36,484 bases of DNA from an uncultured Candidatus Peribacteria bacterium (GCA_964603905.1 CAZRWH010000004.1:25032-61515), one strand, 5' to 3'. Counted from the stretch's first letter, positions 9,234 through 29,217 are shown. A program made the numbers and translations. Notes: generated from the sequence alone by a model not told the origin.

Positions 9234-11024
9234 TTATTCAAGGACCGCCTTGATCCTTCTGACGCCTGCACTGGATGACTGTTCTTTTTTGATGCGGAAT
9301 TTTCCGAGGCCACCAGTTTTATCAGCGTGTGGACCTCCACAAATCTCTTTTGATGCGTCGCCCATGGTGTAAACCTTCACGACGTCACCATACCTTTCTC
9401 CAAAAACTCCGACAGCACCTTGTTCTTTTGCTTCATCAGGTGTCATTTCTGTGCAAGAAATTTCTAGATCAGCCTCGATCCATTCATTTACGATTTGAGT
9501 AACTTGCTCCTTCTCTTCGTCGGTCATCTTTTCGCCGTGAGAAAAATCAAAACGCAATCGCTCAGCAGTGATGTTCGAACCTTTTTGGTAAACATGGTCG
9601 CCAAGCACCTGACGTAACGCTGCCAAAAGAAGATGAGTCGCAGTATGAAGATTGGCTGTCGCCTCACTGTCATCCTGAAGTCCACCCTTGAATTTTTGTT
9701 CAGCACCAGCACGTGACATTTCTTGGTGTTTCGCAAAAGCCTGGCAAAAACCTTCTTCATCGACAGTCATGTCATTCTCACGAGCAAGATCTTTTGTCAT
9801 TTCAAGAGGGAATCCGTAAGTGTCATAAAGTTTGAATGCAAGTCGACCGCTGATAGTTGTTTGATTGTGCTCAAGCAGCTTTCCAGCAATCTTTTGGAAC
9901 TCTTTTTCTCCTTGGTCGAGGGTTCGACAAAATTTAGCTTCTTCTTGCTCAAGAGTATTTAAAATATGATCGCTTTGATCTTTAAGCTCAGGATAAATTT
10001 CAATAAATTTCTCTGCAACATCACGCAGGCTATTGTTAACTCCAATTTTGCGCATATAGCGAAGTGCACGACGAATTAAACGACGCAAAACATAGCCTTG
10101 ATCGGTGTTAGATGGAGTAACTCCACGAGGATCTCCTATTACAAAAACAGCAGCACGCAAGTGGTCCGCAATTACACGTTCAGCCTCAACATTAGTTTCA
10201 GACCCCACTTCTCTCAACCAGTCAATAACAGAAGAAAAAAGCTCAGTTTCGTAATGTGTCGCCGCTCCTTGCATCAATGCGGTTACACGTTCAACTCCAA
10301 GCCCAGTGTCGACATTCATTTGCGAAAGTGGCTCAAAATTCCCCTCCGCAGTTTTGTTGTACTGCATGAAAACATTGTTCCAAATCTCAACATATTTTCC
10401 GCAGTCACAATCAACCCCTTTGGTCGCACATTCCTCGCAAGTTTCTTCTTTTACTTGATAAAAAATTTCAGTATCAGGCCCGCAAGGTCCTGTTTGTCCA
10501 GCAGGTCCCCACCAGTTTTCTTTTTTTCCGTAAAACCAAATTCTTTTAGGTCCAATACCTTCATTTTCAGCCCTAACAAATCCAAGCTCTTCCCAGTAAC
10601 CCGCAGACTCTTCATCTCGAGGAGCATCGTCATCTCCTGCGAAACAGCTGACATTGATTTTTTCAGGATCAAGTCCGAGTCCACTCTCTTTATCAGTCAA
10701 AAATTCGAAGCTCATTTCGATAGCTTCTTTTTTGAAATAGTCGCCAAGGCTCCAGTTCCCCAGCATCTCAAAAAAAGTACAGTGAGTATCGTCTCCAACC
10801 TCGTCAATGTCATCCGTACGAATACATTTTTGGCAATTTACCAGCCTCTTGCCAGCAGGATGAGACTCTCCCATAAGGTATGGCACAAGTGGGTGCATTC
10901 CCGCAGTTGTGAATAAAACAGTCGGATCGTTCTCTGGTATCAAGGACGCGCCAGCAATCTCTTTGTGCGCATGCCGTGAAACAAAAAATTCAATGTACTT
11001 TCGTTTTAATTCGGAGGCTTTCAT
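9234..11024 (-). CDS. alaS: Alanine--tRNA ligase (short form)
   Basis: LFTTAGMHPL, QKCIRT, FFEMLGNWSLGDYFK, GPCGPDTEI, LYDTYGFP, editing HTATHLL..CGGPH, GVRRIKA. Confidence 0.96.
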   Translation of the reverse strand: MKASELKRKYIEFFVSRHAHKEIAGASLIPENDPTVLFTTAGMHPLVPYLMGESHPAGKRLVNCQKCIRTDDIDEVGDDTHCTFFEMLGNWSLGDYFKKEAIEMSFEFLTDKESGLGLDPEKINVSCFAGDDDAPRDEESAGYWEELGFVRAENEGIGPKRIWFYGKKENWWGPAGQTGPCGPDTEIFYQVKEETCEECATKGVDCDCGKYVEIWNNVFMQYNKTAEGNFEPLSQMNVDTGLGVERVTALMQGAATHYETELFSSVIDWLREVGSETNVEAERVIADHLRAAVFVIGDPRGVTPSNTDQGYVLRRLIRRALRYMRKIGVNNSLRDVAEKFIEIYPELKDQSDHILNTLEQEEAKFCRTLDQGEKEFQKIAGKLLEHNQTTISGRLAFKLYDTYGFPLEMTKDLARENDMTVDEEGFCQAFAKHQEMSRAGAEQKFKGGLQDDSEATANLHTATHLLLAALRQVLGDHVYQKGSNITAERLRFDFSHGEKMTDEEKEQVTQIVNEWIEADLEISCTEMTPDEAKEQGAVGVFGERYGDVVKVYTMGDASKEICGGPHADKTGGLGKFRIKKEQSSSAGVRRIKAVLE

Positions 11025-11087: not shown

Positions 11088-11483
11088 TTAGGCTGTATTG
11101 CGATGCGCTATTTCAAGTGCTCTTCTAAGTTCATCAAGTCCGGTGCCGGTGCCCATGAAGTTTGAAGCAAGATCTCTAAGCTCATCGAGCGTTTGCCCTC
11201 GAAAACAACCTTGGAAAGTGTCGGTTGTACGCAATCTTTGCAAAACAAGCTCAGGATCACGGCCTCCAAATATTTCGCAAACAATTCCTTCGATCTGAAA
11301 AGCTCGATCAGTGAGTTCAGTTTCGTTTGGGTGCAGCGTAGGGACATAGTCAGCTATAGTAGCAAGGCAGCCAATATTATCCCTTACAAGTGCAGAGACA
11401 GCGATTCCCACAGGATCACAAGCTTGCCATTCAAAGCTTAGCTTTTTAAAGTCTACACCAGGACTTTGAGAAGGAGAGTTCAT
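11088..11483 (-). CDS. Hypothetical protein
   Basis: 131-aa ORF co-oriented with neighbours; no family recognised. Confidence 0.65.
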   Translation of the reverse strand: MNSPSQSPGVDFKKLSFEWQACDPVGIAVSALVRDNIGCLATIADYVPTLHPNETELTDRAFQIEGIVCEIFGGRDPELVLQRLRTTDTFQGCFRGQTLDELRDLASNFMGTGTGLDELRRALEIAHRNTA

Positions 11484-11516
11484 AAAGTTGTTGTTAAATC
11501 AGGAACCGATCATACC

Positions 11517-12380
11517 CTAAAGCACAACACTCCTCAATCTTTTCGCAATTTGCCTCGAAGTACGACCAATAGTTGCGGTGCTCAAAGACTCTCTAGTTGG
11601 CAGTTCGTTCTTTTTATGAATCAACTCCAAGAAGACAGGGAAAAGTTCATCAAATATTGAATGGTCGTCTCCAGCAAGTTCTTTGATTTTTAAAAACCGT
11701 GTAAGCAAGCTAGGTTCGCAAGGGGCATCTTCTCCATACAATAGAAAGTCTTCCTCGCTAGGACCCCCAACAACCTCACACCAAAAACTTTCAAAATCTT
11801 CAATCTCGCGCTTCCCACGCAAAGCCGAAACCATCAAAGGTTTCAAAACCAAATCATCAAAAGCATTAGCCCAAGCTGGATCTTCTTCCCAAAGCCCCTC
11901 CTCATTAAGCCTCAAGCTATAAAGCTCCCAGCCACGTTTCAAATTTTCAATATTGTCGAAATAAGTATATTCGCGATCTCCTTCCGGATTTCCATCATGA
12001 ATCAACTGGTGCAATTGCACAGCAGATTGAACCATAGACGCAATAATATCTGTCCGCACAGATGGATTTAATTCTTTGATGTCGTTGGTCATCTTCTTTA
12101 CATCATGGACTCCGGTCGTCATCAAATATTTTGGATCAAAAACCATAGAGACTAGAGCATAAGCAACTTTCTCGCTGAAGCATCCAAGTATCTCAGTCAC
12201 TGACGGGTCTAGTTGCGGCCTAGGTCTTTTTCCGCGTTTCATGTTCGACAAATCAACCATAATTCTTGCTACACTTTTTGGAATGTGTTTGTTGAGAGCG
12301 TGAATATGGCCCTCCTCAACGCTGGATTTGATGGCGCGAGGATCTACGATTGTATTAACTATTTCGGGGTGAATACGCAT
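11517..12380 (-). CDS. Hypothetical protein
   Basis: 287-aa ORF with an upstream TTGATT-16nt-TAAAAT promoter-like site; no family recognised. Confidence 0.8.
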   Translation of the reverse strand: MRIHPEIVNTIVDPRAIKSSVEEGHIHALNKHIPKSVARIMVDLSNMKRGKRPRPQLDPSVTEILGCFSEKVAYALVSMVFDPKYLMTTGVHDVKKMTNDIKELNPSVRTDIIASMVQSAVQLHQLIHDGNPEGDREYTYFDNIENLKRGWELYSLRLNEEGLWEEDPAWANAFDDLVLKPLMVSALRGKREIEDFESFWCEVVGGPSEEDFLLYGEDAPCEPSLLTRFLKIKELAGDDHSIFDELFPVFLELIHKKNELPTRESLSTATIGRTSRQIAKRLRSVVL

Positions 12381-12440
12381 ATTTTAAAAAAAACACAGTA
12401 CGAAAGCCCATTTTACTGATTTGTAAGCGAAAATCAAGGC

Positions 12441-12848
12441 TTAATAGCCATGTGGGAACGGCATATAAATCAATGCGTCCCGCATAGCAAATCGAAATGC
12501 GTCTGGGTTTCGTGGAAGCATCATGTCTCCTTCCAAATATTGTTGTAGTTTTCTTGCAAAAATTTGATGCAATTGAGCTTCATTATGGGCAAAAACATCT
12601 TTGGCATCAGCTTTGACTCGCGGAATAACCAACTCAACCAATTCTGCCAAATAACGAACGTGCGGAACAATCGAAGGATGTAGTCGTAAATCTTCTATTG
12701 GTGCACCAGCAGCAATAAATCCACCGACAGAATTACCATTTAGTAGTTCTTTTGTTGCCACAGGATCGTTAATCAAAATCCAAGCTAGAACTTCAGGACG
12801 GTCAGACGTTTCAAGAGATGTAGTAGTAGGAGCAGAGGATGGGCGCAT
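12441..12848 (-). CDS. Hypothetical protein
   Basis: 135-aa ORF starting 11 nt after the 677-aa gene; S/T/P-rich N-terminus. Confidence 0.7.
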   Translation of the reverse strand: MRPSSAPTTTSLETSDRPEVLAWILINDPVATKELLNGNSVGGFIAAGAPIEDLRLHPSIVPHVRYLAELVELVIPRVKADAKDVFAHNEAQLHQIFARKLQQYLEGDMMLPRNPDAFRFAMRDALIYMPFPHGY

Positions 12849-12859
12849 AAATATTTTAA

Positions 12860-14893
12860 TTAAAGTCCAAGTTTAGAACGGCAAACAGCAACAAATTCCT
12901 CCGGGCTTAAAGCAGGTTGGTCGGTTGCCATGATTAAATCAAAGAAAGCTTGTTGGATGACATGATAAGAAGCCGTAGGTTGTCCAAATTCTCTGCGCAA
13001 TTGTTTAATATCCTCTTCGGCAGCAACAACAGCTAGAGCTTTTTCAAAAAGTAACGAGTGTCCGTGAGGAATTGCCATGACCGCTGTTGTAATATTTCCA
13101 TTTCGGTCTGGAACATTTGTGAATACAGCTTTATGAAGTGCAGTTGCTTGTTGAATTGTAGGTCTAAAGATCACATCCAGTTGTTCGTCTTCAAGTCCAG
13201 CCTCCTTAGCAAGAGACGCAAAAGTTTCCATGAACTGATTTGTGTTGTAAATTCTTATGCCGCCATCGAGTAGTACCTTCATCGTTTCTACAAAGATAGG
13301 CATAACTTTATCTTCTCCTAGTTCAGCAGACAGTGCTCGGATATTTGGAGTAACGTCGTTTGCAATGTCCAGTTTTTCTGCAAGGCTTTCAATATTGCAT
13401 CGTGTTCTACGCAAGGCATCACGGAATGGGTTGCTAAGCGACGTGCGCAGACGTTCATCAAGTAGGATACGAGTCAATTTCTCAACCATTGCGTCGTCAA
13501 GAAATCTCTCAGAAGGGAATGCCCATTCAAGGTTTTTCTCAAGCAAAGCCATGAACTCTTCGGAAGGGTTGTCCGATTTGAGAGGTGTGCTACCTGTCAA
13601 AATTCCTCTAATAGTTGGCAGCATTACAGTATTTCGGAAATTGAGTGCGCGGTCTTCCATCTCAGCGATCTCATCTTTGTTAGCAATTCGAGCAGCAACT
13701 ACCAGCGCCAAACGCTCGGTAAAAATCGTGCGGTACTCATTAGGTATAGGCATAAGGGCATTCTCCAAAAACCAAGTACTAGATTCGTATGAGTCTAAAG
13801 CGTAAAAAACAAGCGCCTCAATAAGATTTGCATCAACTTTTAGATCCCAAGACTCTTCGGTTGGCGTGACTTTCGTAAACAAGTGCTCATCCAAAAAATC
13901 AGCAGTTGTCCCTGCGTCTCTAGGAGATCTTACGAAAGTTGAGACAGAATCGGAAATCCCCTGCAACGAATCACGCGTAGCATTTTTAGCAGAATGCATC
14001 GCATAAAGAGCAGGATACGCCTCTATCAAAACTTCAGCTTTCTCTCGCAAAACTGAGGAGTCCCCAGGCAAATTTTCAACATAAGAAAGAAGGTCAGAAT
14101 CACGACTCTGGTCTTCATTCCAAAAACTCACAAATATTCCACTAGCTTGAGCGTGAGTTGGAAGGAAAATAAAACGCACAGACTCTTCTCTAACACCACG
14201 AGCGTTGGCAAATTCAGCAAAAGCAATTGCAAACTCTTGCGAGTTGCGAATTCTAGCTCCTCCACCAAGAAGAAACCTAACTGTGTCATCAAATGCAGCT
14301 CTTGCTTTGGCAGCTTCGTCTGGACGATCCATCAATAACAGGTCCATATTGTCGAGAAGCTCTTTTACTATGTTGATTTTTCTTCGTACTCCGGCACCTT
14401 GATTCATATCAAGTCCCAGATGTCTAACTGCATGACTAAGGCTAGATCCTTGTTGGTGAGGCATACAGCGCCACCGAAGCAATATATCTGCAATTGCATT
14501 TGAGGCAGCATCATCAACAACATATTCACTTGGATAGCAAGCTTCAACTCCGTCCGCAAGCATGCCAAGAAGATGCTCAGACTTAGGCTCCGGCAAAACT
14601 ACAGTGCCTGTCATGATATTGGTCAGTACCGGCTCAAGTATCATGTCTCGAAATCCGATCGAAAGCTCCTCTAGTACTCGGATGTCATCCTCAATTTCTC
14701 TTACAACTTGCAGCATATCAGCAATCCTAGTCTTAATTTCTTGATTCCCATCTCGAGGTTCAAGCATTCTTTGAACATATTCATCATCAAGGTTGTCATA
14801 ATGAGAAGCGATAACGCTTGCAAATCCAGAGACCTTGCTGCGTTCCAAGAAATCACTTAGTTGATCATTACCTCCAGGAGTTTGTATAGACAT
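12860..14893 (-). CDS. Hypothetical protein made of two tandem ~338-aa repeats
   Basis: Paired motifs FRDMILEP/FRNTVMLP, YPSEYVVDDA/FPSERFLDDA, LLGGGARIRN/LLDGGIRIYN, IFLPTHAQA/IFRPTIQQA. Confidence 0.85.
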   Translation of the reverse strand: MSIQTPGGNDQLSDFLERSKVSGFASVIASHYDNLDDEYVQRMLEPRDGNQEIKTRIADMLQVVREIEDDIRVLEELSIGFRDMILEPVLTNIMTGTVVLPEPKSEHLLGMLADGVEACYPSEYVVDDAASNAIADILLRWRCMPHQQGSSLSHAVRHLGLDMNQGAGVRRKINIVKELLDNMDLLLMDRPDEAAKARAAFDDTVRFLLGGGARIRNSQEFAIAFAEFANARGVREESVRFIFLPTHAQASGIFVSFWNEDQSRDSDLLSYVENLPGDSSVLREKAEVLIEAYPALYAMHSAKNATRDSLQGISDSVSTFVRSPRDAGTTADFLDEHLFTKVTPTEESWDLKVDANLIEALVFYALDSYESSTWFLENALMPIPNEYRTIFTERLALVVAARIANKDEIAEMEDRALNFRNTVMLPTIRGILTGSTPLKSDNPSEEFMALLEKNLEWAFPSERFLDDAMVEKLTRILLDERLRTSLSNPFRDALRRTRCNIESLAEKLDIANDVTPNIRALSAELGEDKVMPIFVETMKVLLDGGIRIYNTNQFMETFASLAKEAGLEDEQLDVIFRPTIQQATALHKAVFTNVPDRNGNITTAVMAIPHGHSLLFEKALAVVAAEEDIKQLRREFGQPTASYHVIQQAFFDLIMATDQPALSPEEFVAVCRSKLGL

Positions 14894-22916: not shown

Positions 22917-23771
22917 ATGCACAAAGTATTACTCGCAGCACAGCGAAACGAAATTACCGAACACTTTATCTACAAAAAACTGGCAAAGTCGACCAAGAAC
23001 AGGCATAACCGAGACACGCTCAATCGAATTGCAGACGACGAACTTAAGCATTACAAGATCTGGATAAAATACACAAAAACAGAAGTGAAGCCGGATAAGC
23101 TCAAGATTTTTATGTACTACTGGATATCGAAAATCCTCGGCCTTACATTTGGGGTGCGACTCATGGAAAAAGGAGAATCAATGGCGCAAGTTAACTACAA
23201 AAAACTTGTAAAAACATATCCAGAGGCCGCAAAAATCGCACAAGAAGAAGATGAACACGAACAGAGATTGATAGAGATTCTGAATGAGGAAAAGCTTGAA
23301 TACATCGGGTCAATGGTCCTTGGTCTAAACGACGCATTGGTCGAGCTGACAGGAGTTTTGGCAGGTTTGACACTGGCTCTACAAAACACCTCATTGATAG
23401 CTTTGACCGGAGGAATAACAGGTATTGCAGCCTCATTATCAATGGCGGCATCTGAATACTTGTCGATCAAGTCAGATGATAGCAATCAGGACCCAGTCAA
23501 AGGGTCTCTGTATACAGGATCAGCTTACGTAATGACCGTAATAATCCTGGTTGCACCGTACTTGATTTTCGAAAACTATTATTACGCACTTGCAACCGCT
23601 CTAGTTTCAGCAGTGCTAATAATTTTGATCTTCACATTCTACATATCCATCGCAAAAAATCTTCCATTCAAAAGAAGATTCTTTGAAATGGCAGGGATTA
23701 GTCTGGGGGTTTCATCCCTAACCTTCGGGATAGGATATCTAATCCGCTTGTTGTGGGGAATAGATCTGTAA
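22917..23771 (+). CDS. Rubrerythrin/ferritin-like domain fused to VIT1/CCC1 transporter
   Basis: ExxH motifs (DELKH, EDEH); VLGLNDALVE and SLSMAASEYLS VIT1 motifs; five TMs. Confidence 0.85.
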   Translation: MHKVLLAAQRNEITEHFIYKKLAKSTKNRHNRDTLNRIADDELKHYKIWIKYTKTEVKPDKLKIFMYYWISKILGLTFGVRLMEKGESMAQVNYKKLVKTYPEAAKIAQEEDEHEQRLIEILNEEKLEYIGSMVLGLNDALVELTGVLAGLTLALQNTSLIALTGGITGIAASLSMAASEYLSIKSDDSNQDPVKGSLYTGSAYVMTVIILVAPYLIFENYYYALATALVSAVLIILIFTFYISIAKNLPFKRRFFEMAGISLGVSSLTFGIGYLIRLLWGIDL

Positions 23772-26700
23772 TCTTTTCGGAATCAGGGTGATCTAACAAG
23801 AAAGAGTTAGGTGCCATTTGAACAACCTCAACAGCAGGTAGGCGGTGAGATTTTAGTATGACGCTAAGTATTTGGTAGCTAGACATGTCATCCGGAAACT
23901 CTAGGACAAGAGGGAAGACATTACCTGGCTTTGCTAAGGCTGTTTGCATTATCAAAGGGTCTATATTAGCCCCATGTTTTGCAAGGAAACCAGTGAGTTC
24001 TTCAAAAGCACCTCGTCGATTAGTTAACTGAAAAGAAACAGAAATTGGCCTTTCTCGATCAAGGTACATATCGATAGCATGCAAAGGATCTAGGCGTCCA
24101 TCTCCAATACACTCCATTGTTCTTTGGCGACGGTCTTTGTAGTAGGCTGTGTGCCTTTCTACATCACGTCGATGAATCATTTGAGTTGTCATGTCTGCAA
24201 CGACTCTTTGAATACTAGCAAGTGCAGAAGGATCCTCTTCGCGTTTAGCAAGTTCGGAATATTCTTGGAGCTCAGAAAATCTTTGATCGATCTCTATGAT
24301 GTCTTGAGGTACTTCCTCAGGATTAAGAAGGTGATCTATGCATTTCAGCTCAATGATCCCATGTTTTTTTTCAAGGCCCAAAACAGGAGCAAGAACGTAT
24401 TCGATATAACGCTTAGCATAGGATATACATATCGCTGCCCTTGCCTTATCCATGTCTTCAGGGAGAGGAGTTTTTTGTTGGATAAGATCTGTAAAATATT
24501 GTCTTACGCGAGTAGCAAAGCGCCTGCGATCAGCACAATGAGTTAGGAGGTCTAGCCCAAAAGTGCTGTTCGTTTTTGATGGATCAATGACGATTTGGCA
24601 TATATCTTCATCTTCCAAAGGTTCAAACAAATGGACACGTTTCTTTTTTAGTTCGATGTAGCCGTCAACAACAACTCTATGAAGCACAACAGCATGAGAA
24701 GCTTGGAATAGATATTTAGGGAAAGCTCTATCATTAAATGCGGCAGCAATAACATCTAAAGGGGTTGCTCCTTGAGGTACAACAATCGGGCTTTCAAGCA
24801 GCTCTTCAGCTCCATGCTTAAGGAATATCCTCATGTTAGGACGCAAAACTTCAGTTTCAATAACCTCCAAGATTGGCCTGTTTGTTGCTCGTGCTTCGTC
24901 GATAGCATGCTTAAGTTTTTCAATTAATTCTTCAGGGATGGAGCCAGCTATACCTTTTTTTGCAGCAGTCTCATTTCTTACTGTGTTAACTCTGACACGA
25001 ATACTTCGCCCTGTTAGTGGATCGGAAAGATCAAGCTTGATTCCATGAAGTTCATCGTCTTCCGGGTACGTTGTCATTTTGTGGCCAGCCGATATAGCGT
25101 TTTGTATTTTTGCAGCGACTGATGATAAATCGTCAGGACTACCTACCAAAACTGCAATTTCAAAAAGAGGATCTTCCGGTATTTCAGGTACATATTTCGG
25201 GTCTCCAAGTCGGGACAAATCAATATGACTTTCGAGAGCGCTCGGGATGATATCAATTGAACGAATTCCTGGATCGATTGGAGTGAAGACGCTCATTATT
25301 TCTCCTCGTATATCACCGATAGCATCCCAAACTTCACCCTTAGGAAGATTGAAGCTGTGAAGCATTTGACCACAAAGTGATCCTGCATCAGGTCTATATT
25401 TATCGCGATCCATGAAACTAAGCATCCTCTTTAGGATTTTTACTTCAAACAAGTGGGCAGGAATAGAGTCGAAATGTTGGTTTAGTCTCAAGCGATCTTC
25501 AATGTCTTTCCTCTGTTTTTTATAAAACTTTTTGCGAATTGAAGTCTTGTTTTCCTCTTCATAAAAATCGAACGCTAGTCCAACAAGCATGTTGTAAACT
25601 TCAGTTAGACCGAGCATTTTGGCAAGGATAGAGTAGTCGCGTAGTGAACGCATTTTTTCGCGAGCGCGCTCAGAACTAAGGCCATCAAGAGTTTCGAAGT
25701 TTTGAATTTGTTCAAGTACTTTGCATACAAAAATTTCGGGATCAAGTATCCCTTTTTCAAAAAATGCTAGAAGATTTACTTCGTCACGATCAGGCGTGGG
25801 GAAGTCCTGTTTCTTTGTCATTCCCAATACTCTTCTTTCAACATCATGAGAAACACCCTGGAAAAATTCTCTAGGACTACAGCTGTATTCATCGTTGTAG
25901 TCATCACTCAATTTATCAGCATACAGAGGATAGCAACACACCCAGTCGAGGTTTAAATTAGGACTGTTTTTGTCATGGACGCCGACATCTTCGATACTGT
26001 CATGTTTGAACGCAGAGAATATATCGGCAGAGTCGGTAAATGAGTACTTGGCGTGATTGCTGGCAGCAGCTTGGAGGTGCTCATCGAAGTAAGATTTTGA
26101 AGGGTCAGATTTTCGAGTTTTATTTCGGAAAAGATAGTGGTCATAAACCATTTCATAGGCGAGTGCAATTAAGAAATCCGGCCCGTGCAAAGGTTTGCCT
26201 TCAAGTCTGCGTTGGTGCTGAATTTTAATCGCAAGCTTTTCAATAATCTCTTTTAGTGGCTCATTTTCTTCGAGATGTTTAGCAAGAATATATGTAAAAA
26301 AACTAAATTTAATCTCCTCAAGTTTGGTCAACTGCATCTGGTAATCTTGCAGGGTAAGTGAAAACCATGCAGGTCCGCTCATATCCAAATCGATACGGTT
26401 TTTGTTAAGCCAAATGAATGCCAAAATATCATTAAAGCCATTCGTGTTTTTTGCATCAGGATCGCATTTACCCCTGATTGTTCTTCGGAACTGGTTAAAA
26501 TCTTTTGCCTCAAGGAGCGCTATTTTCGCTCGGACAAAAAGCATATCAAGCAACTTTGGATTGTCTGTAAGTGCAGATTGGCAGACATGGATTGATTTTT
26601 TTGTATCCATGACTTCTTGCGCAATATCAACCTCAGAATCAAAAGAAACGATGTCGCCGTTTATGTCTTCGTAGCTTTCAAAAAACACTTCTTCAACCTG

Positions 26701-26892
26701 TGTAGCATCAAAAGCAATTGATCGAAAAGCCCGATTAACACCTTTGATCGTATTAGTAAATTCGGTTTTAGATAGGCCTGGAGTTCTTCTGTAAATTGAA
26801 AAACGTTCAAGCTTATTGCGTCTCGGAGGATCCGTCGAAATTCGGTCAATAGTTCTGTCTAAATTTTCGCCTGGCTGCAACACTAAGTCCAA
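23698..26892 (-). CDS. Highly divergent long RelA/SpoT homolog (HD + pseudo-synthetase + TGS + ACT) with N-terminal extension; start (TTG) uncertain
   Basis: RKS..Y..H, KHDSIEDV, VLGMTK, KVLEQIQNFETL, LAKMLGL; RVRVNT..AAKKGIA; PQGATPLD..LEDEDICQI; TNRRGAFEELTGFLAKHGANI. Confidence 0.78.
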   Translation of the reverse strand: MDLVLQPGENLDRTIDRISTDPPRRNKLERFSIYRRTPGLSKTEFTNTIKGVNRAFRSIAFDATQVEEVFFESYEDINGDIVSFDSEVDIAQEVMDTKKSIHVCQSALTDNPKLLDMLFVRAKIALLEAKDFNQFRRTIRGKCDPDAKNTNGFNDILAFIWLNKNRIDLDMSGPAWFSLTLQDYQMQLTKLEEIKFSFFTYILAKHLEENEPLKEIIEKLAIKIQHQRRLEGKPLHGPDFLIALAYEMVYDHYLFRNKTRKSDPSKSYFDEHLQAAASNHAKYSFTDSADIFSAFKHDSIEDVGVHDKNSPNLNLDWVCCYPLYADKLSDDYNDEYSCSPREFFQGVSHDVERRVLGMTKKQDFPTPDRDEVNLLAFFEKGILDPEIFVCKVLEQIQNFETLDGLSSERAREKMRSLRDYSILAKMLGLTEVYNMLVGLAFDFYEEENKTSIRKKFYKKQRKDIEDRLRLNQHFDSIPAHLFEVKILKRMLSFMDRDKYRPDAGSLCGQMLHSFNLPKGEVWDAIGDIRGEIMSVFTPIDPGIRSIDIIPSALESHIDLSRLGDPKYVPEIPEDPLFEIAVLVGSPDDLSSVAAKIQNAISAGHKMTTYPEDDELHGIKLDLSDPLTGRSIRVRVNTVRNETAAKKGIAGSIPEELIEKLKHAIDEARATNRPILEVIETEVLRPNMRIFLKHGAEELLESPIVVPQGATPLDVIAAAFNDRAFPKYLFQASHAVVLHRVVVDGYIELKKKRVHLFEPLEDEDICQIVIDPSKTNSTFGLDLLTHCADRRRFATRVRQYFTDLIQQKTPLPEDMDKARAAICISYAKRYIEYVLAPVLGLEKKHGIIELKCIDHLLNPEEVPQDIIEIDQRFSELQEYSELAKREEDPSALASIQRVVADMTTQMIHRRDVERHTAYYKDRRQRTMECIGDGRLDPLHAIDMYLDRERPISVSFQLTNRRGAFEELTGFLAKHGANIDPLIMQTALAKPGNVFPLVLEFPDDMSSYQILSVILKSHRLPAVEVVQMAPNSFLLDHPDSEKITDLFPTTSGLDILSRRLGMKPPD

Positions 26893-27082
26893 ATTACTAA
26901 AATAGAATAAAACTTATACCACGACTCGGTAAATATGTAAAGGGCGCCAACAGGTTTGAACGATGATTGTAAAAAAAACGGAATATATATCTTGGTTTTA
27001 TATGACAAAATAAGCCAAATTAAACCTGTTATAAGCATGTAAAATATGCTAAAATCCAGGCACAATTAATAACTAATTAAAA

Positions 27083-27619
27083 ATGGTTTTATCAGACAAG
27101 ACTCTCAAAGCAATGATCGAATCAGGCGAACTCAAAGTTTCTCCTCTTACAGATCAATCAATTCAACCTGCATCTATTGACTGCACGCTCGGATCACACT
27201 ATTTAGTTGTGGAACACAACAAAATGGAGACCCTAACACTCGATTCAGAAATCCATTACCGTGAAATAGAAGGTGACTCAATCACAATCCCAGCGCATTC
27301 ATTTCTTCTCGCAACAATTGAGCAGTACGTTGAATTGCCAGACGACCTAACTGCATTTGTGGAAGGGCGAAGTTCAATCGGACGTATCGGACTTTTTATT
27401 CAAAACGCAGGATGGGTGGACCCAGGATTCAAAGGTCAAATAACGCTCGAACTTTACAACGCAAACTCACTCCCAATTAGGCTCGAAAAAGGACGACGAA
27501 TTTGTCAGCTTGTCTTCTGTAAAATGGATCAAGCAGCAGAAGTTCCTTACGACGGCAAATATCAAGGTCAGACGAATGCAACGGGAAGCAGGGTGTTTAA
27601 GGATGTTGAGGTGAAGTAA
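27083..27619 (+). CDS. dcd: dCTP deaminase
   Basis: IQPASID, EGRSSIGRIG, AGWVDPGFKGQITLE, ICQLVF, YDGKYQGQ. Confidence 0.95.
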   Translation: MVLSDKTLKAMIESGELKVSPLTDQSIQPASIDCTLGSHYLVVEHNKMETLTLDSEIHYREIEGDSITIPAHSFLLATIEQYVELPDDLTAFVEGRSSIGRIGLFIQNAGWVDPGFKGQITLELYNANSLPIRLEKGRRICQLVFCKMDQAAEVPYDGKYQGQTNATGSRVFKDVEVK

Positions 27620-27690: not shown

Positions 27691-28245
27691 TTACGCTTTC
27701 CCAAGTGTGTCATCACCTTTCTTCCATCCTACAGGACAAAGATCCCCTGTTTGGAAAGCAGTGATAAGTCTTAGAAGCTCATCAACATTTCGTCCAACTC
27801 CAAGATCGTTTACCATGTAAGATTTCAAGATTCCGTTTGGATCAATCAAGAAAGCTCCACGCAAACTAATTCCTTCGTCCTCAAGAAGAACATTGTAATT
27901 GAAACTTGCATCTTTTGTGAGGTCACTTAGAAGCGGGTAGTTAAGATCTCCAAGATCTCCTTTGCACCAAGCTTCGTGAGAGTAGACGCTGTCTACGCTT
28001 ACACCAAGAACTTGAGTGTTAAGATCTTCGAACTCTTTGTGTCGTTTGCTGAGCTCAATTAGCTCTGTTGGGCAAACAAAAGTGAAGTCAAGTGGGTAGA
28101 AAAATAGAAGGGTCCATTTTCCTTTGAAGTCTTCGAGAGAGTATCGGCGTTTCTCGCCTTTGTAGTACCCCTCCATCTCGAAATCAGGGGCAGGTTGATT
28201 GATTTGTAGAGGTGCGCAGCACCCGAAATCATCGTCTTTGTACAT
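27691..28245 (-). CDS. ahpC: Typical 2-Cys peroxiredoxin
   Basis: FFYPLDFTFVCPTE, SVDS..SH..W, GRNVDE, resolving Cys in LCPVGW. Confidence 0.93.
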   Translation of the reverse strand: MYKDDDFGCCAPLQINQPAPDFEMEGYYKGEKRRYSLEDFKGKWTLLFFYPLDFTFVCPTELIELSKRHKEFEDLNTQVLGVSVDSVYSHEAWCKGDLGDLNYPLLSDLTKDASFNYNVLLEDEGISLRGAFLIDPNGILKSYMVNDLGVGRNVDELLRLITAFQTGDLCPVGWKKGDDTLGKA

Positions 28246-28326
28246 TTTTTTTGGGTTAAATTGTTAATTATTTATGAATTTTGTTTAAAGAAAACAAGCG
28301 GCCATAAAGGCTCAAAATTTCTCTCC

Positions 28327-28368
28327 TCTATAATCTGTAATCTGTCATCTGTGATCTGTCATCTGTGA
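28327..28368. repeat. Heptamer tandem array
   Basis: TCTATAA TCTGTAA TCTGTCA TCTGTGA TCTGTCA TCTGTGA, immediately after the SOR stop codon. Confidence 0.85.
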
Positions 28369-28369
28369 T

Positions 28370-28798
28370 CTAACTAGACTCCCAAACCCCATGCAGATTG
28401 CAGTAGGCAAGAGCATAAAGATCATCCGAATACTCAACTCCTTCAAAGAATGCAACAGGCTGATCTCCAGCTTTGAGTGTGATTTTTTTGATAGGAGAAG
28501 CTCCATTGTCTCCATAAAGTTCAACTGTTGTAATTGAGTGAGCATCTTCCATCGGATGAGGGATCGATCCAACTTTTACATTAACGCCACCGTCAGTAGC
28601 TTCAATAACGGGGACATGTTTCTCTTGCGCTTCACCACCAGTGAACTCTTCACCAAGATGATGGACAACTTCGAACTCATTTTTCCCAACTTTACAAAGT
28701 GGGCATTTGTAATCATCTGGCTGATCTTCGAATGAAGTTCCGTCGTTTTTTGCTGGGTCGTAGATCCAGGCGCAAACTTTACATCTATGTTTGTGCAT
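28370..28798 (-). CDS. Rubredoxin-superoxide reductase fusion
   Basis: Rubredoxin [14 protein letters not shown]; SOR active site [18 protein letters not shown]. Confidence 0.9.
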
Positions 28799-28812
28799 AA
28801 TATTTTTTTTAT

Positions 28813-29217
28813 TTAAGATTTACAGTCTTTGCAAAAGCCTGGGATCTCAATGCGTTCTGTGTTGATTTGGAATCCAGAATCTTTGATTTGTTTTGAGCAA
28901 GGCATTTTGCATTCACAGTCAAATATATCTGTTACTTCTCCACATTCTTTGCAGATCAAATGAATATGCGGATTAGTATTACCGTCGTACCTAGTTTTTT
29001 TGTCTTTGGTTTGTAGCTTGATTATAAAATCGTTCGACGCTAAGAAGTCGAGATTTCTATAAACCGTAGCAAAACTAACATTTGGCATCCGTTTAATAAC
29101 CATTTTGTGGATCTCTTGTGCAGTCGGATGACATCCAACATTGCACAGTTCCTCAAGGATTACTTGCCTTTGTTTGGTTAAACGGTGGTTCGTATTTTTG
29201 ATATATTCTTGTAACAT
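28813..29217 (-). CDS. perR: Fur-family regulator, PerR-like
   Basis: [36 protein letters not shown]-terminal CKDC; heads the SOR/AhpC genes. Confidence 0.8.

Follow-up and report, generated by a model that had tools for sequence, protein, structure and literature searches.

Long RelA/SpoT homologs (RSHs) that only degrade alarmones and carry a fossil synthetase domain have so far been documented experimentally for SpoT of the Moraxellaceae. Acinetobacter baumannii SpoT is a hydrolase-only long RSH that is insensitive to the ribosome and whose hydrolase (HD) domain is tuned by the pseudo-synthetase (pseudo-SYNTH), Core, TGS, and C-terminal domains (Tamman et al., PMC9974481). A preliminary description of a 36,484-nucleotide stretch of DNA from an uncultured Candidatus Peribacteria bacterium (GCA_964603905.1 CAZRWH010000004.1:25032-61515; the whole stretch is called the window below) had named Moraxellaceae SpoT as a precedent for one of its genes, and the precedent holds. 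The gene, here called RSHx (also P0001), lies at positions 23698 to 26892 on the minus strand and encodes a very diverged long RSH paralog. As an accessory fourth RSH, its product probably works in the cytoplasm and only hydrolyzes alarmones, which would make it a long RSH of type [H s]. Such an enzyme, analogous to Moraxellaceae SpoT, would most likely be Mn dependent and ribosome independent. Homology, architecture, residue conservation, distribution, and synteny were computed here, and from them we infer catalysis, substrate, metal, and a regulatory role for the dead domains.

Standard searches are nearly blind to RSHx. The sole Pfam match was a sub-threshold ACT domain (E value of 0.01, 16 bits, cut-off of 27), and HD_4, RelA_SpoT, and TGS gave no match even at an E value of ≤1. 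The NCBIfam model TIGR00691 (spoT_relA) matched residues 348 to 487 (E value of 7e-8) at 31.2 bits, below its cut-off of 499.2. A phmmer search against PDB sequences returned nothing at an E value of ≤1, and a word-indexed protein search among 7173 candidates recovered RSHx itself as the sole match. BLASTP against three canonical RSHs from the same genome gave E values of 0.036 to 0.36, and these weak alignments placed the HD..ED, GxTK, KLADRLHN-counterpart, and TGS GATP motifs in register. Because standard annotation does not see RSHx, the number of such enzymes will be underestimated when the stringent response is surveyed in uncultivated bacteria.

An exhaustive HMMER search over 1.84 billion representatives, with a threshold E value of ≤1e-3, found 35 proteins, 12 of which (the entry for RSHx included) scored at ≤1e-30. 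Fourteen close relatives (P0003 to P0016; 799 to 1318 amino acids [aa]; 21 to 28% identical) constitute tier 1, and 14 of the weaker HMMER relatives (697 to 1088 aa) constitute tier 2. Alignment A1 contains the 15 tier-1 sequences, RSHx included, and the 29 family members discussed below are both tiers plus RSHx. Among 27 relatives scanned with Pfam, RelA_SpoT matched none, HD_4 matched 8 (all in tier 2), TGS matched 6, and an ACT-type model matched 9, with ACT reaching an E value of 2e-6. TIGR00691 matched 3 of 14 tier-1 and all 14 tier-2 proteins at 23 to 96 bits, and none of the 28 relatives scored above 96.2.

Searching the PDB with the A1 profile linked the family to known structures. At an E value of ≤0.1, the 17 distinct sequences matched comprised 15 RSHs and two ACT-bearing dehydrogenases, and the best matches were ribosome-bound Rel (8fr8; E value of 1e-11), A. 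baumannii SpoT (7qpr; E value of 6e-8), and Bacillus subtilis Rel (6yxa). HD, TGS, and ACT pieces were collinear in these alignments, and a feature search of the ESM Atlas returned RSH clusters only. The collinear RSH landmarks reported in the preliminary description are therefore real, being recovered in order by the profile and matched by the structure model described below. Its quoted motifs are all found in the translation: RKS..Y..H (residues 260 to 272), HD..ED (297 to 302), VLGMTK (355 to 360), KVLEQIQNFETL (391 to 402), PLFEIA (575 to 580), DELHGIK (612 to 618), RVRVNT (632 to 637), AAKKGIA (642 to 648), and PQGATPLD (706 to 713).

An AlphaFold2 model built from a 31-row alignment had a mean predicted local distance difference test score (pLDDT) of 80.8 and a predicted template modeling score of 0.78. 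Its layout is collinear with that of long RSHs: a helical N-terminal extension, HD, a synthetase-fold domain, Core, TGS, a helical domain, and ACT. Foldseek with the full model ranked full-length SpoT (7qpr) first (E value of 3e-11), followed by B. subtilis Rel and Escherichia coli RelA, with 21 matches at an E value of ≤1e-3. In VIA-align comparisons, model residues 215 to 652 aligned with the catalytic half (HD plus SYNTH) of Staphylococcus aureus Rel (Z of 16.8, root mean square deviation [rmsd] of 3.5, 309 of 327 residues), and SpoT gave a Z of 14.9. Small alarmone hydrolases (SAHs) and Mesh1 matched residues ~223 to 447 (Z of 11.4 to 12.7), the TGS domains of Rbg1 and DRG1 matched residues 684 to 770 (Z of 10.5 and 9.6, respectively), and the ACT domains of acetohydroxyacid synthase regulatory subunits matched residues 946 to 1030 (Z of 9.4 to 8.7). 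Some family members (P0009, P0011, and P0015; L020 G556) reach 1126 to 1318 aa because their helical domain, which separates TGS from ACT, contains long, charged, coiled-coil-like inserts of as many as ~400 aa.

The HD domain is the most conserved domain of the family. R260, H272, H297, D298, E301, D302, N398, and T401 are invariant in all 15 A1 sequences, align with the canonical residues of the paralogs in the same genome and of Rel 8fr8, and are each kept in 27 to 29 of the 29 family members (R260, H272, H297, E301, D302, and N398 in all 29; D298 in 28). In SpoT, the HD and ED motifs and two histidines are described as forming the Mn2+ and catalytic site, and the R-K..Y/F..H loop, which is conserved in this family much as in canonical enzymes, as coordinating guanine (PMC9974481). 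One metal ligand differs. As first noticed in the preliminary description, and as alignment with the canonical paralogs bears out, the Asp is Glu394, and E394-Q395 is invariant in all 15 A1 sequences at the position of canonical D-R. Tier 2 is mixed at this position (Glu in 6 of 14, Asp in 8 of 14), so the change from Asp to Glu arose within an otherwise canonical-looking site. A family-specific insert of about 30 residues (within residues 303 to 345) follows the ED motif and contains H306 and Y324, both invariant in A1.

Such family-specific changes raise the question of substrate. An HD domain acting on (p)ppApp, pGpp, NADPH, nucleotides phosphorylated at the 3′ position like 3′-phosphoadenosine 5′-phosphosulfate (PAPS), or a lineage-specific alarmone made by a canonical paralog is a real if rather unlikely possibility. 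RSHx would in that case be a specialized enzyme for another nucleotide rather than a (p)ppGpp hydrolase. Consistent with this alternative are E394-Q395 in place of D-R, Q397 in place of His, the invariance of H306 and Y324 inside the insert, and structural matches to (p)ppApp hydrolases (6yvc, Z of 11.5; 7smg, Z of 10.9) and to Mesh1 with NADPH or PAPS (Z of 12.0) that are about as good as those to ppGpp hydrolases. However, the loop described as guanine coordinating (PMC9974481) is in a near-canonical state, which argues for a guanine nucleotide.

The synthetase-fold domain has kept its fold and lost its catalytic residues. When aligned with the paralogs, the counterpart of the RxK helix is acidic, the position of the catalytic Asp is Pro575, G617 is all that is left of NGYxSxH, and EVQIRT has become x-V-R634-V-N636-T, in which the Glu position is variable and R634 and N636 occupy the Q and R positions. 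This bears out the erosion of synthetase motifs proposed earlier, with the RxK helix, catalytic Asp, and EVQIRT Glu all replaced. Several of the replacements are themselves conserved: D574-P575-L-F-E578, G617, R634-x-N636-T, and E641..K646(R/K)-G647. Of 31 family-signature positions (those retained by ≥80% of members), this domain holds 11 and the adjacent Core one more, P653. Together, the alignments and the AlphaFold model support reading RSHx as a long RSH whose HD site looks intact and whose synthetase fold is dead.

The conserved replacements stand where canonical catalytic motifs stand, which could be read as a sign that this domain retains synthetase activity, or some other nucleotidyl or pyrophosphoryl transferase activity, through alternative residues. 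We regard this as extremely unlikely, because the basic ATP-binding helix (RxKxxxS) is acidic and the position of the catalytic Glu is not conserved. In addition, the strands that carry the motifs also form the core of the fold, so their conservation may be structural. The same signature positions are expected of a ligand site, and they enter a different alternative, in which RSHx is a noncatalytic sensor or scaffold, with both sites dead or binding only, that regulates a canonical RSH or another partner. The very high evolutionary rate of RSHx and the Asp-to-Glu change at the metal ligand would also fit a sensor. This alternative is unlikely: all 15 close sequences have the full HD catalytic set unchanged, ED dyad included, which is hard to explain without catalysis, and no partner gene is conserved across lineages. 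With these residues also near-invariant among the 29 family members, the option of a pseudo-enzyme offered in the preliminary description is weakened.

The remaining C-terminal domains have also changed. In TGS, GATxLD is kept and D713 is invariant, and the position of the HT-motif histidine is Phe or Pro in all 15 A1 sequences and His in 12 of 14 tier-2 sequences. In RelA and Rel, this histidine is the residue that reads the CCA end of tRNA. The ACT domain directly follows an IGxGxxDPL motif, and alignment with the paralogs shows no CC..C motif, so the zinc finger is absent. This absence had been remarked on before, but it is shared by C39 and C64, two of the three canonical paralogs.

At the N terminus, the preliminary description counted about 240 extra residues. 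The extension is real, and its length is about 205 to 215 residues rather than 240, judged by where Rel structures begin to align. It consists of a conserved strand-helix (residues ~29 to 64), a variable helical insert (residues ~87 to 180), and a conserved helix leading into HD. Its length ranges from 109 to 271 aa in eight orthologs. In the family comparison, the N-terminal region (61 to 203 aa, 19% pairwise identity) and the linker between HD and the synthetase fold are the least conserved parts of the protein. When folded alone, the extension reached a pLDDT of 70.1, with residues 9 to 38 and 62 to 69 below 50, compared to 87 to 96 for residues 30 to 65 in the full model. In the model, the element at residues 30 to 65 thus appears to pack on the rest of the protein, at the HD domain. 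Catalytic domains of phosphodiesterases aligned over model residues 3 to 452 (VIA-align Z of 8.7 to 8.8), which suggests that the N-terminal helices enlarge the HD domain. The isolated extension had no specific fold match: the best VIA-align hit was FliS (Z of 5.6) among helical bundles with Z of 4.8 to 5.6, and the best Foldseek E value was 0.68, an absence that is no proof of novelty. What had been called a novel N-terminal domain is better described as a variable helical extension with generic helical-bundle matches.

A mechanism for RSHx as a monofunctional hydrolase can be proposed from these features. The HD domain would bind a divalent metal, probably Mn2+, through H272, H297, D298, and E394, and E301 and D302 would remove the 3′-pyrophosphate of (p)ppGpp or a close analogue. 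The variable N-terminal helices would pack onto this domain and enlarge it. The former synthetase domain, Core, TGS, the enlarged helical domain, and ACT would neither synthesize alarmones nor read the ribosome or tRNA, and may instead serve within the molecule to scaffold or regulate the hydrolase, as they do in A. baumannii SpoT. Synthetase activity in this genome would come from its three canonical long RSHs, judging by their synthetase motifs and PF04607 matches. A bolder version, which we consider doubtful, holds that the synthetase pocket was rebuilt as a ligand site gating a ribosome-independent hydrolase, and that the substrate at the altered metal site, with Glu-Gln for Asp-Arg and the invariant H306 and Y324, is not (p)ppGpp but a different alarmone. 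If true, RSHx would serve to degrade a second nucleotide signal, specific to this lineage, in a four-RSH network within a 1.3-Mb symbiont genome.

The assembly (1.31 Mb in 67 contigs, 94% complete) encodes three canonical long RSHs, which answers whether a canonical rel exists elsewhere in the genome. They are referred to by contig as C39 (712 aa), C64 (642 aa), and C29 (818 aa), at loci L001, L002, and L003. These three proteins are the only ones in the genome to match PF04607 and PF13328, and they keep the synthetase motifs. C29 is the sole paralog with a zinc finger (CC..C), and its hydrolase motif is eroded, reading HDTPNHKE for HDxxED, like RelA. At least one canonical RSH was present in all 41 relatives searched, and two or three were common. 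The family itself is far more restricted. In a sample of the phylum, the A1 profile matched 1 of 401 genomes at an E value of ≤1e-20, that of RSHx itself, and in a sample of the order, 31 of 205 genomes matched at ≤1e-15. Ten of these 31 carried strong, full-length matches (tier 1, from five families) and 21 carried weaker ones (tier 2), with no genome in both lists.

Long RSHs have reportedly been divided into 11 subgroups by Atkinson in 2011 and 13 by Jimmy in 2020. In a quick IQ-TREE phylogeny of 49 rows, made up of the 29 family members and 20 canonical RSHs with no proteobacterial sequences included, the two groups were split by a branch of length 2.09 (Shimodaira-Hasegawa-like approximate likelihood ratio test support of 100). 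Tier 1 formed a clade (support of 100) nested in tier 2, with details unsure given a long-branch warning. Within the samples searched, the family is confined to a single order, which favors an independent origin, and the putatively hydrolase-only RSHx was probably derived independently in Peribacterales, within the Peregrinibacteria of the candidate phyla radiation (CPR). Independent derivation, suggested earlier, fits both the distance of this CPR lineage from Moraxellaceae and the placement of RSHx in a different clade from the three canonical RSHs of the same genome. A description of the family was not found in the literature on the stringent response of CPR bacteria and Peregrinibacteria, from which the possibly relevant Datasets S1 and S2 of PMC7229694 were not covered, and the names Peregrinibacteria and Peribacteria were absent from three supplements of that paper (Datasets S1 and S2 again aside).

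Gene order indicates how RSHx has been inherited. Three genomes of the same family (G001, G003, and G004) share the order DUF3352, DUF4012, rubrerythrin-VIT1, RSHx, desulfoferrodoxin, Fur, MutL, M23, except that Fur was not detected in G004 and that dcd and peroxiredoxin were detected only in G003. Ferritin-like genes adjoin the RSHx ortholog in G001 and G003. Compared with the window, the syntenic RSHx orthologs are 25 to 30% identical and their neighbors 52 to 86% identical, and canonical RSH orthologs between the same genomes are 59 to 75%, 61 to 66%, and 46% identical. In G005 and G007, DUF4012 abuts desulfoferrodoxin, with RSHx absent between them. Conserved neighbor order, low RSHx identity, and empty syntenic sites show that RSHx is vertically inherited, fast evolving, and dispensable. 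Its G+C content of 0.41 is the same as that of the flanks and the rest of the window, and together with the synteny conserved in relatives, this speaks against a foreign island. Two further observations concern this site. In G001 and G004, desulfoferrodoxin or ferritin is directly followed, in the same direction, by the RSHx ortholog. In G002 (L067, C64 9460-9935), the place of RSHx is taken by a ferritin-like gene and two small open reading frames (ORFs) of 68 and 87 aa, a pair that is toxin-antitoxin-like by eye only.

Fast evolution and patchy distribution might also be expected of an effector delivered to the host cell of a presumably symbiotic CPR bacterium, where it would degrade host alarmones. 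In 8 of 30 genomes, all from two other families, a PrgI-family gene (type IV secretion-related) and a conserved ORF of 250 aa are found beside LepA, no more than 1.5 kb from the family gene; in 3 of the 8 they are co-directional with it. However, the pair is convergent with the family gene in 5 of 8, and the presence of LepA in the same neighborhood points to inherited synteny rather than an operon. Their shared PrgI/LepA position connects the genes of the two tiers as orthologs. The idea of an operon or dedicated partner was rejected, as no neighbor is conserved across lineages. Moreover, RSHx occupies a vertically inherited locus of the chromosome, its neighbors in the window are oxidative-stress and housekeeping genes, its translation shows neither a signal peptide nor a transmembrane segment, and the C-terminal regulatory half of a cytoplasmic enzyme is retained in full. 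Delivery to a host is therefore very unlikely, and the modulation of a host stringent response speculated on in the preliminary description finds no support. As a side observation, the ORF that follows the PrgI-family gene (L057 6805-8010; L020 4313-5598) is 245 to 274 aa long, has no Pfam family, is 53 to 78% identical between lineages, and adjoins LepA; it also occurs in the RSHx genome, at a contig end (G000:C35:360-1073).

Several findings count against RSHx as an alarmone hydrolase of the SpoT kind. The structure model was built on a shallow alignment of 31 sequences, and the full model had no rigid superposition on the tau-state of SpoT (rmsd of 17 Å over 476 residues). HD_4 does not match RSHx even at the loosest E value used, Glu394 and Q395 in place of Asp-Arg could alter metal or substrate, and the GxTK lysine varies across the family. 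Very fast evolution may also mean relaxed constraint, and RSHx is dispensable: 3 of 7 genomes of the same family do not have it at the syntenic site.

The window is ordinary chromosome, with genes for FtsW, MurG, a MiaB-like protein, alanyl-tRNA synthetase (AlaRS), a P-type ATPase, MutL, PurH, and BacA. As noted before, dcd (27083-27619, plus strand) is divergent from RSHx. On the other side, a rubrerythrin-VIT1 fusion gene (22917-23771, plus strand) is convergent with RSHx, and their 3′ ends overlap by 74 nucleotides (23698-23771). The RSHx call in the public protein collection is 1061 aa long and starts 3 residues downstream of the TTG used here. A scan of 26700-27150 revealed no sigma-70-like promoter or terminator on the RSHx strand, and the window contained no Rfam elements at gathering thresholds. 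PADLOC defense models matched no families for RSHx or its relatives P0003 and P0018, and P0009 had one weak coiled-coil match. The features of the locus are collected in the table below.

Features of the RSHx locus, with positions in the window
Feature	Position	Strand	Basis
RSHx, whole gene; divergent long RelA/SpoT homolog, predicted type [H s]	23698..26892	-	1064 aa; single ORF, no internal stops, TTG start
N-terminal extension, aa 1 to ~210	26263..26892	-	Rel structures align only from model 204-218
HD (alarmone hydrolase) domain, aa ~211-470	25483..26262	-	Z 11-12.7 to SAH/Mesh1; 34% pairwise identity
HD..ED motif, H297 D298 .. E301 D302	25987..26004	-	15/15 invariant; aligns with paralog HDxxED
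KVLEQIQNFETL, aa 391-402, counterpart of canonical KLADRLHNMRTL; Asp to Glu394, N398 and T401 kept	25687..25722	-	
Variable helical linker between HD and synthetase fold, aa 471-535	25288..25482	-	17% pairwise identity, 12-90 aa; helices in model
Pseudo-synthetase domain, aa 536-652	24937..25287	-	Fold kept; aligns as one body with HD onto Rel halves
Core-like helix-turn-helix, aa 653-683	24844..24936	-	Helices 654-670 and 674-681, pLDDT 81-89; P653 conserved
TGS domain, aa 684-772	24577..24843	-	GATPLD kept; HT-motif histidine replaced; Z 10.5
Expanded helical domain, aa 773-944, ends IGDGRLDPL	24061..24576	-	Long model helices; 92-396 aa in family
ACT/RRM-like C-terminal domain, aa 945-1030	23803..24060	-	Z 9.4-8.7; Pfam ACT E 0.01
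C-terminal tail, aa 1031-1064 plus stop, low confidence	23698..23802	-	pLDDT <50 for 1035-1064; overlaps rubrerythrin-VIT1
Intergenic region RSHx/dcd, 190 bp, presumed promoter region	26893..27082	.	ORF map

Three other observations were made in the window. An oxidative-stress and iron cluster surrounds RSHx (27691-29217 and 22917-23771), with a Fur-family regulator, a rubredoxin-desulfoferrodoxin, a peroxiredoxin, and the rubrerythrin-VIT1 iron-transporter fusion. Four consecutive ORFs (131, 287, 135, and 677 aa; 11088-14893, minus strand) between the AlaRS and P-type ATPase genes have no Pfam family at an E value of ≤0.01. The AlaRS ORF (9234-11024, minus strand) encodes 596 aa, comprising the catalytic core and second additional domain, and is presumably shorter than the usual bacterial enzyme.

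Should RSHx prove to be a hydrolase-only enzyme, a second, probably independent, origin in the CPR would show that such specialization recurs. As a natural variant in which the zinc finger is missing, the metal ligand is changed, and the HD domain is enlarged, RSHx would allow the tau-state model of SpoT regulation to be tested. It also shows that genomes of ~1.3 Mb, usually deemed stripped down, hold up to four long RSH genes.

Compared with known systems, RSHx most resembles Moraxellaceae SpoT (7QPR), its top Foldseek match, with which it shares an active-type HD domain, a noncatalytic synthetase fold, Core, TGS, and ACT/RRM. Its helix-turn-helix (residues 654 to 681) sits where SpoT has the Core, and insensitivity to the ribosome, published for SpoT (PMC9974481), would apply to RSHx by analogy. 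RSHx differs from Moraxellaceae SpoT in belonging to CPR Peregrinibacteria, where it forms a clade apart from the canonical RSHs of its own genome, and in having no zinc finger, ~210 residues of N-terminal helices, a 30-residue HD insert, and a Glu metal ligand. It is a fourth, dispensable paralog rather than the only hydrolase of the cell, it evolves much faster, and its predicted global arrangement does not superpose rigidly on that of SpoT.

Bifunctional Rel enzymes (S. aureus Rel 7OIW, Thermus thermophilus Rel 6S2V, RelSeq 1VJ7, and B. subtilis Rel 6YXA) have the same HD catalytic residues and align with the HD domain and synthetase fold of RSHx as one body (Z of 15.2 to 16.8, rmsd of 3.5 to 4.7, 299 to 335 residues). 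Relative to them, RSHx has lost the synthetase residues, the TGS histidine, and the zinc finger, has gained N-terminal helices, and scores 31 bits with TIGR00691, compared to the 499-bit cut-off. SAHs and Mesh1 (RelH 7QOC, Leptospira SAH 7QOE, Mesh1 3NR1/5VXA, and Pseudomonas aeruginosa SAH 6YVC) share the HD fold and motif (Z of 11.4 to 12.7, rmsd of 2.5 to 2.9, ~170 residues) and, as predicted for RSHx from its residues, are hydrolase only. However, they are single-domain proteins of ~180 aa, whereas RSHx carries the full regulatory train of a long RSH. The canonical RSHs of the same genome (C39, C64, and C29) have the same domain order as RSHx, and C39 and C64 likewise have no zinc finger. 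Unlike RSHx, they match PF04607 and PF13328, keep the synthetase motifs, and fall on the opposite side of the long branch that separates the family from canonical RSHs.

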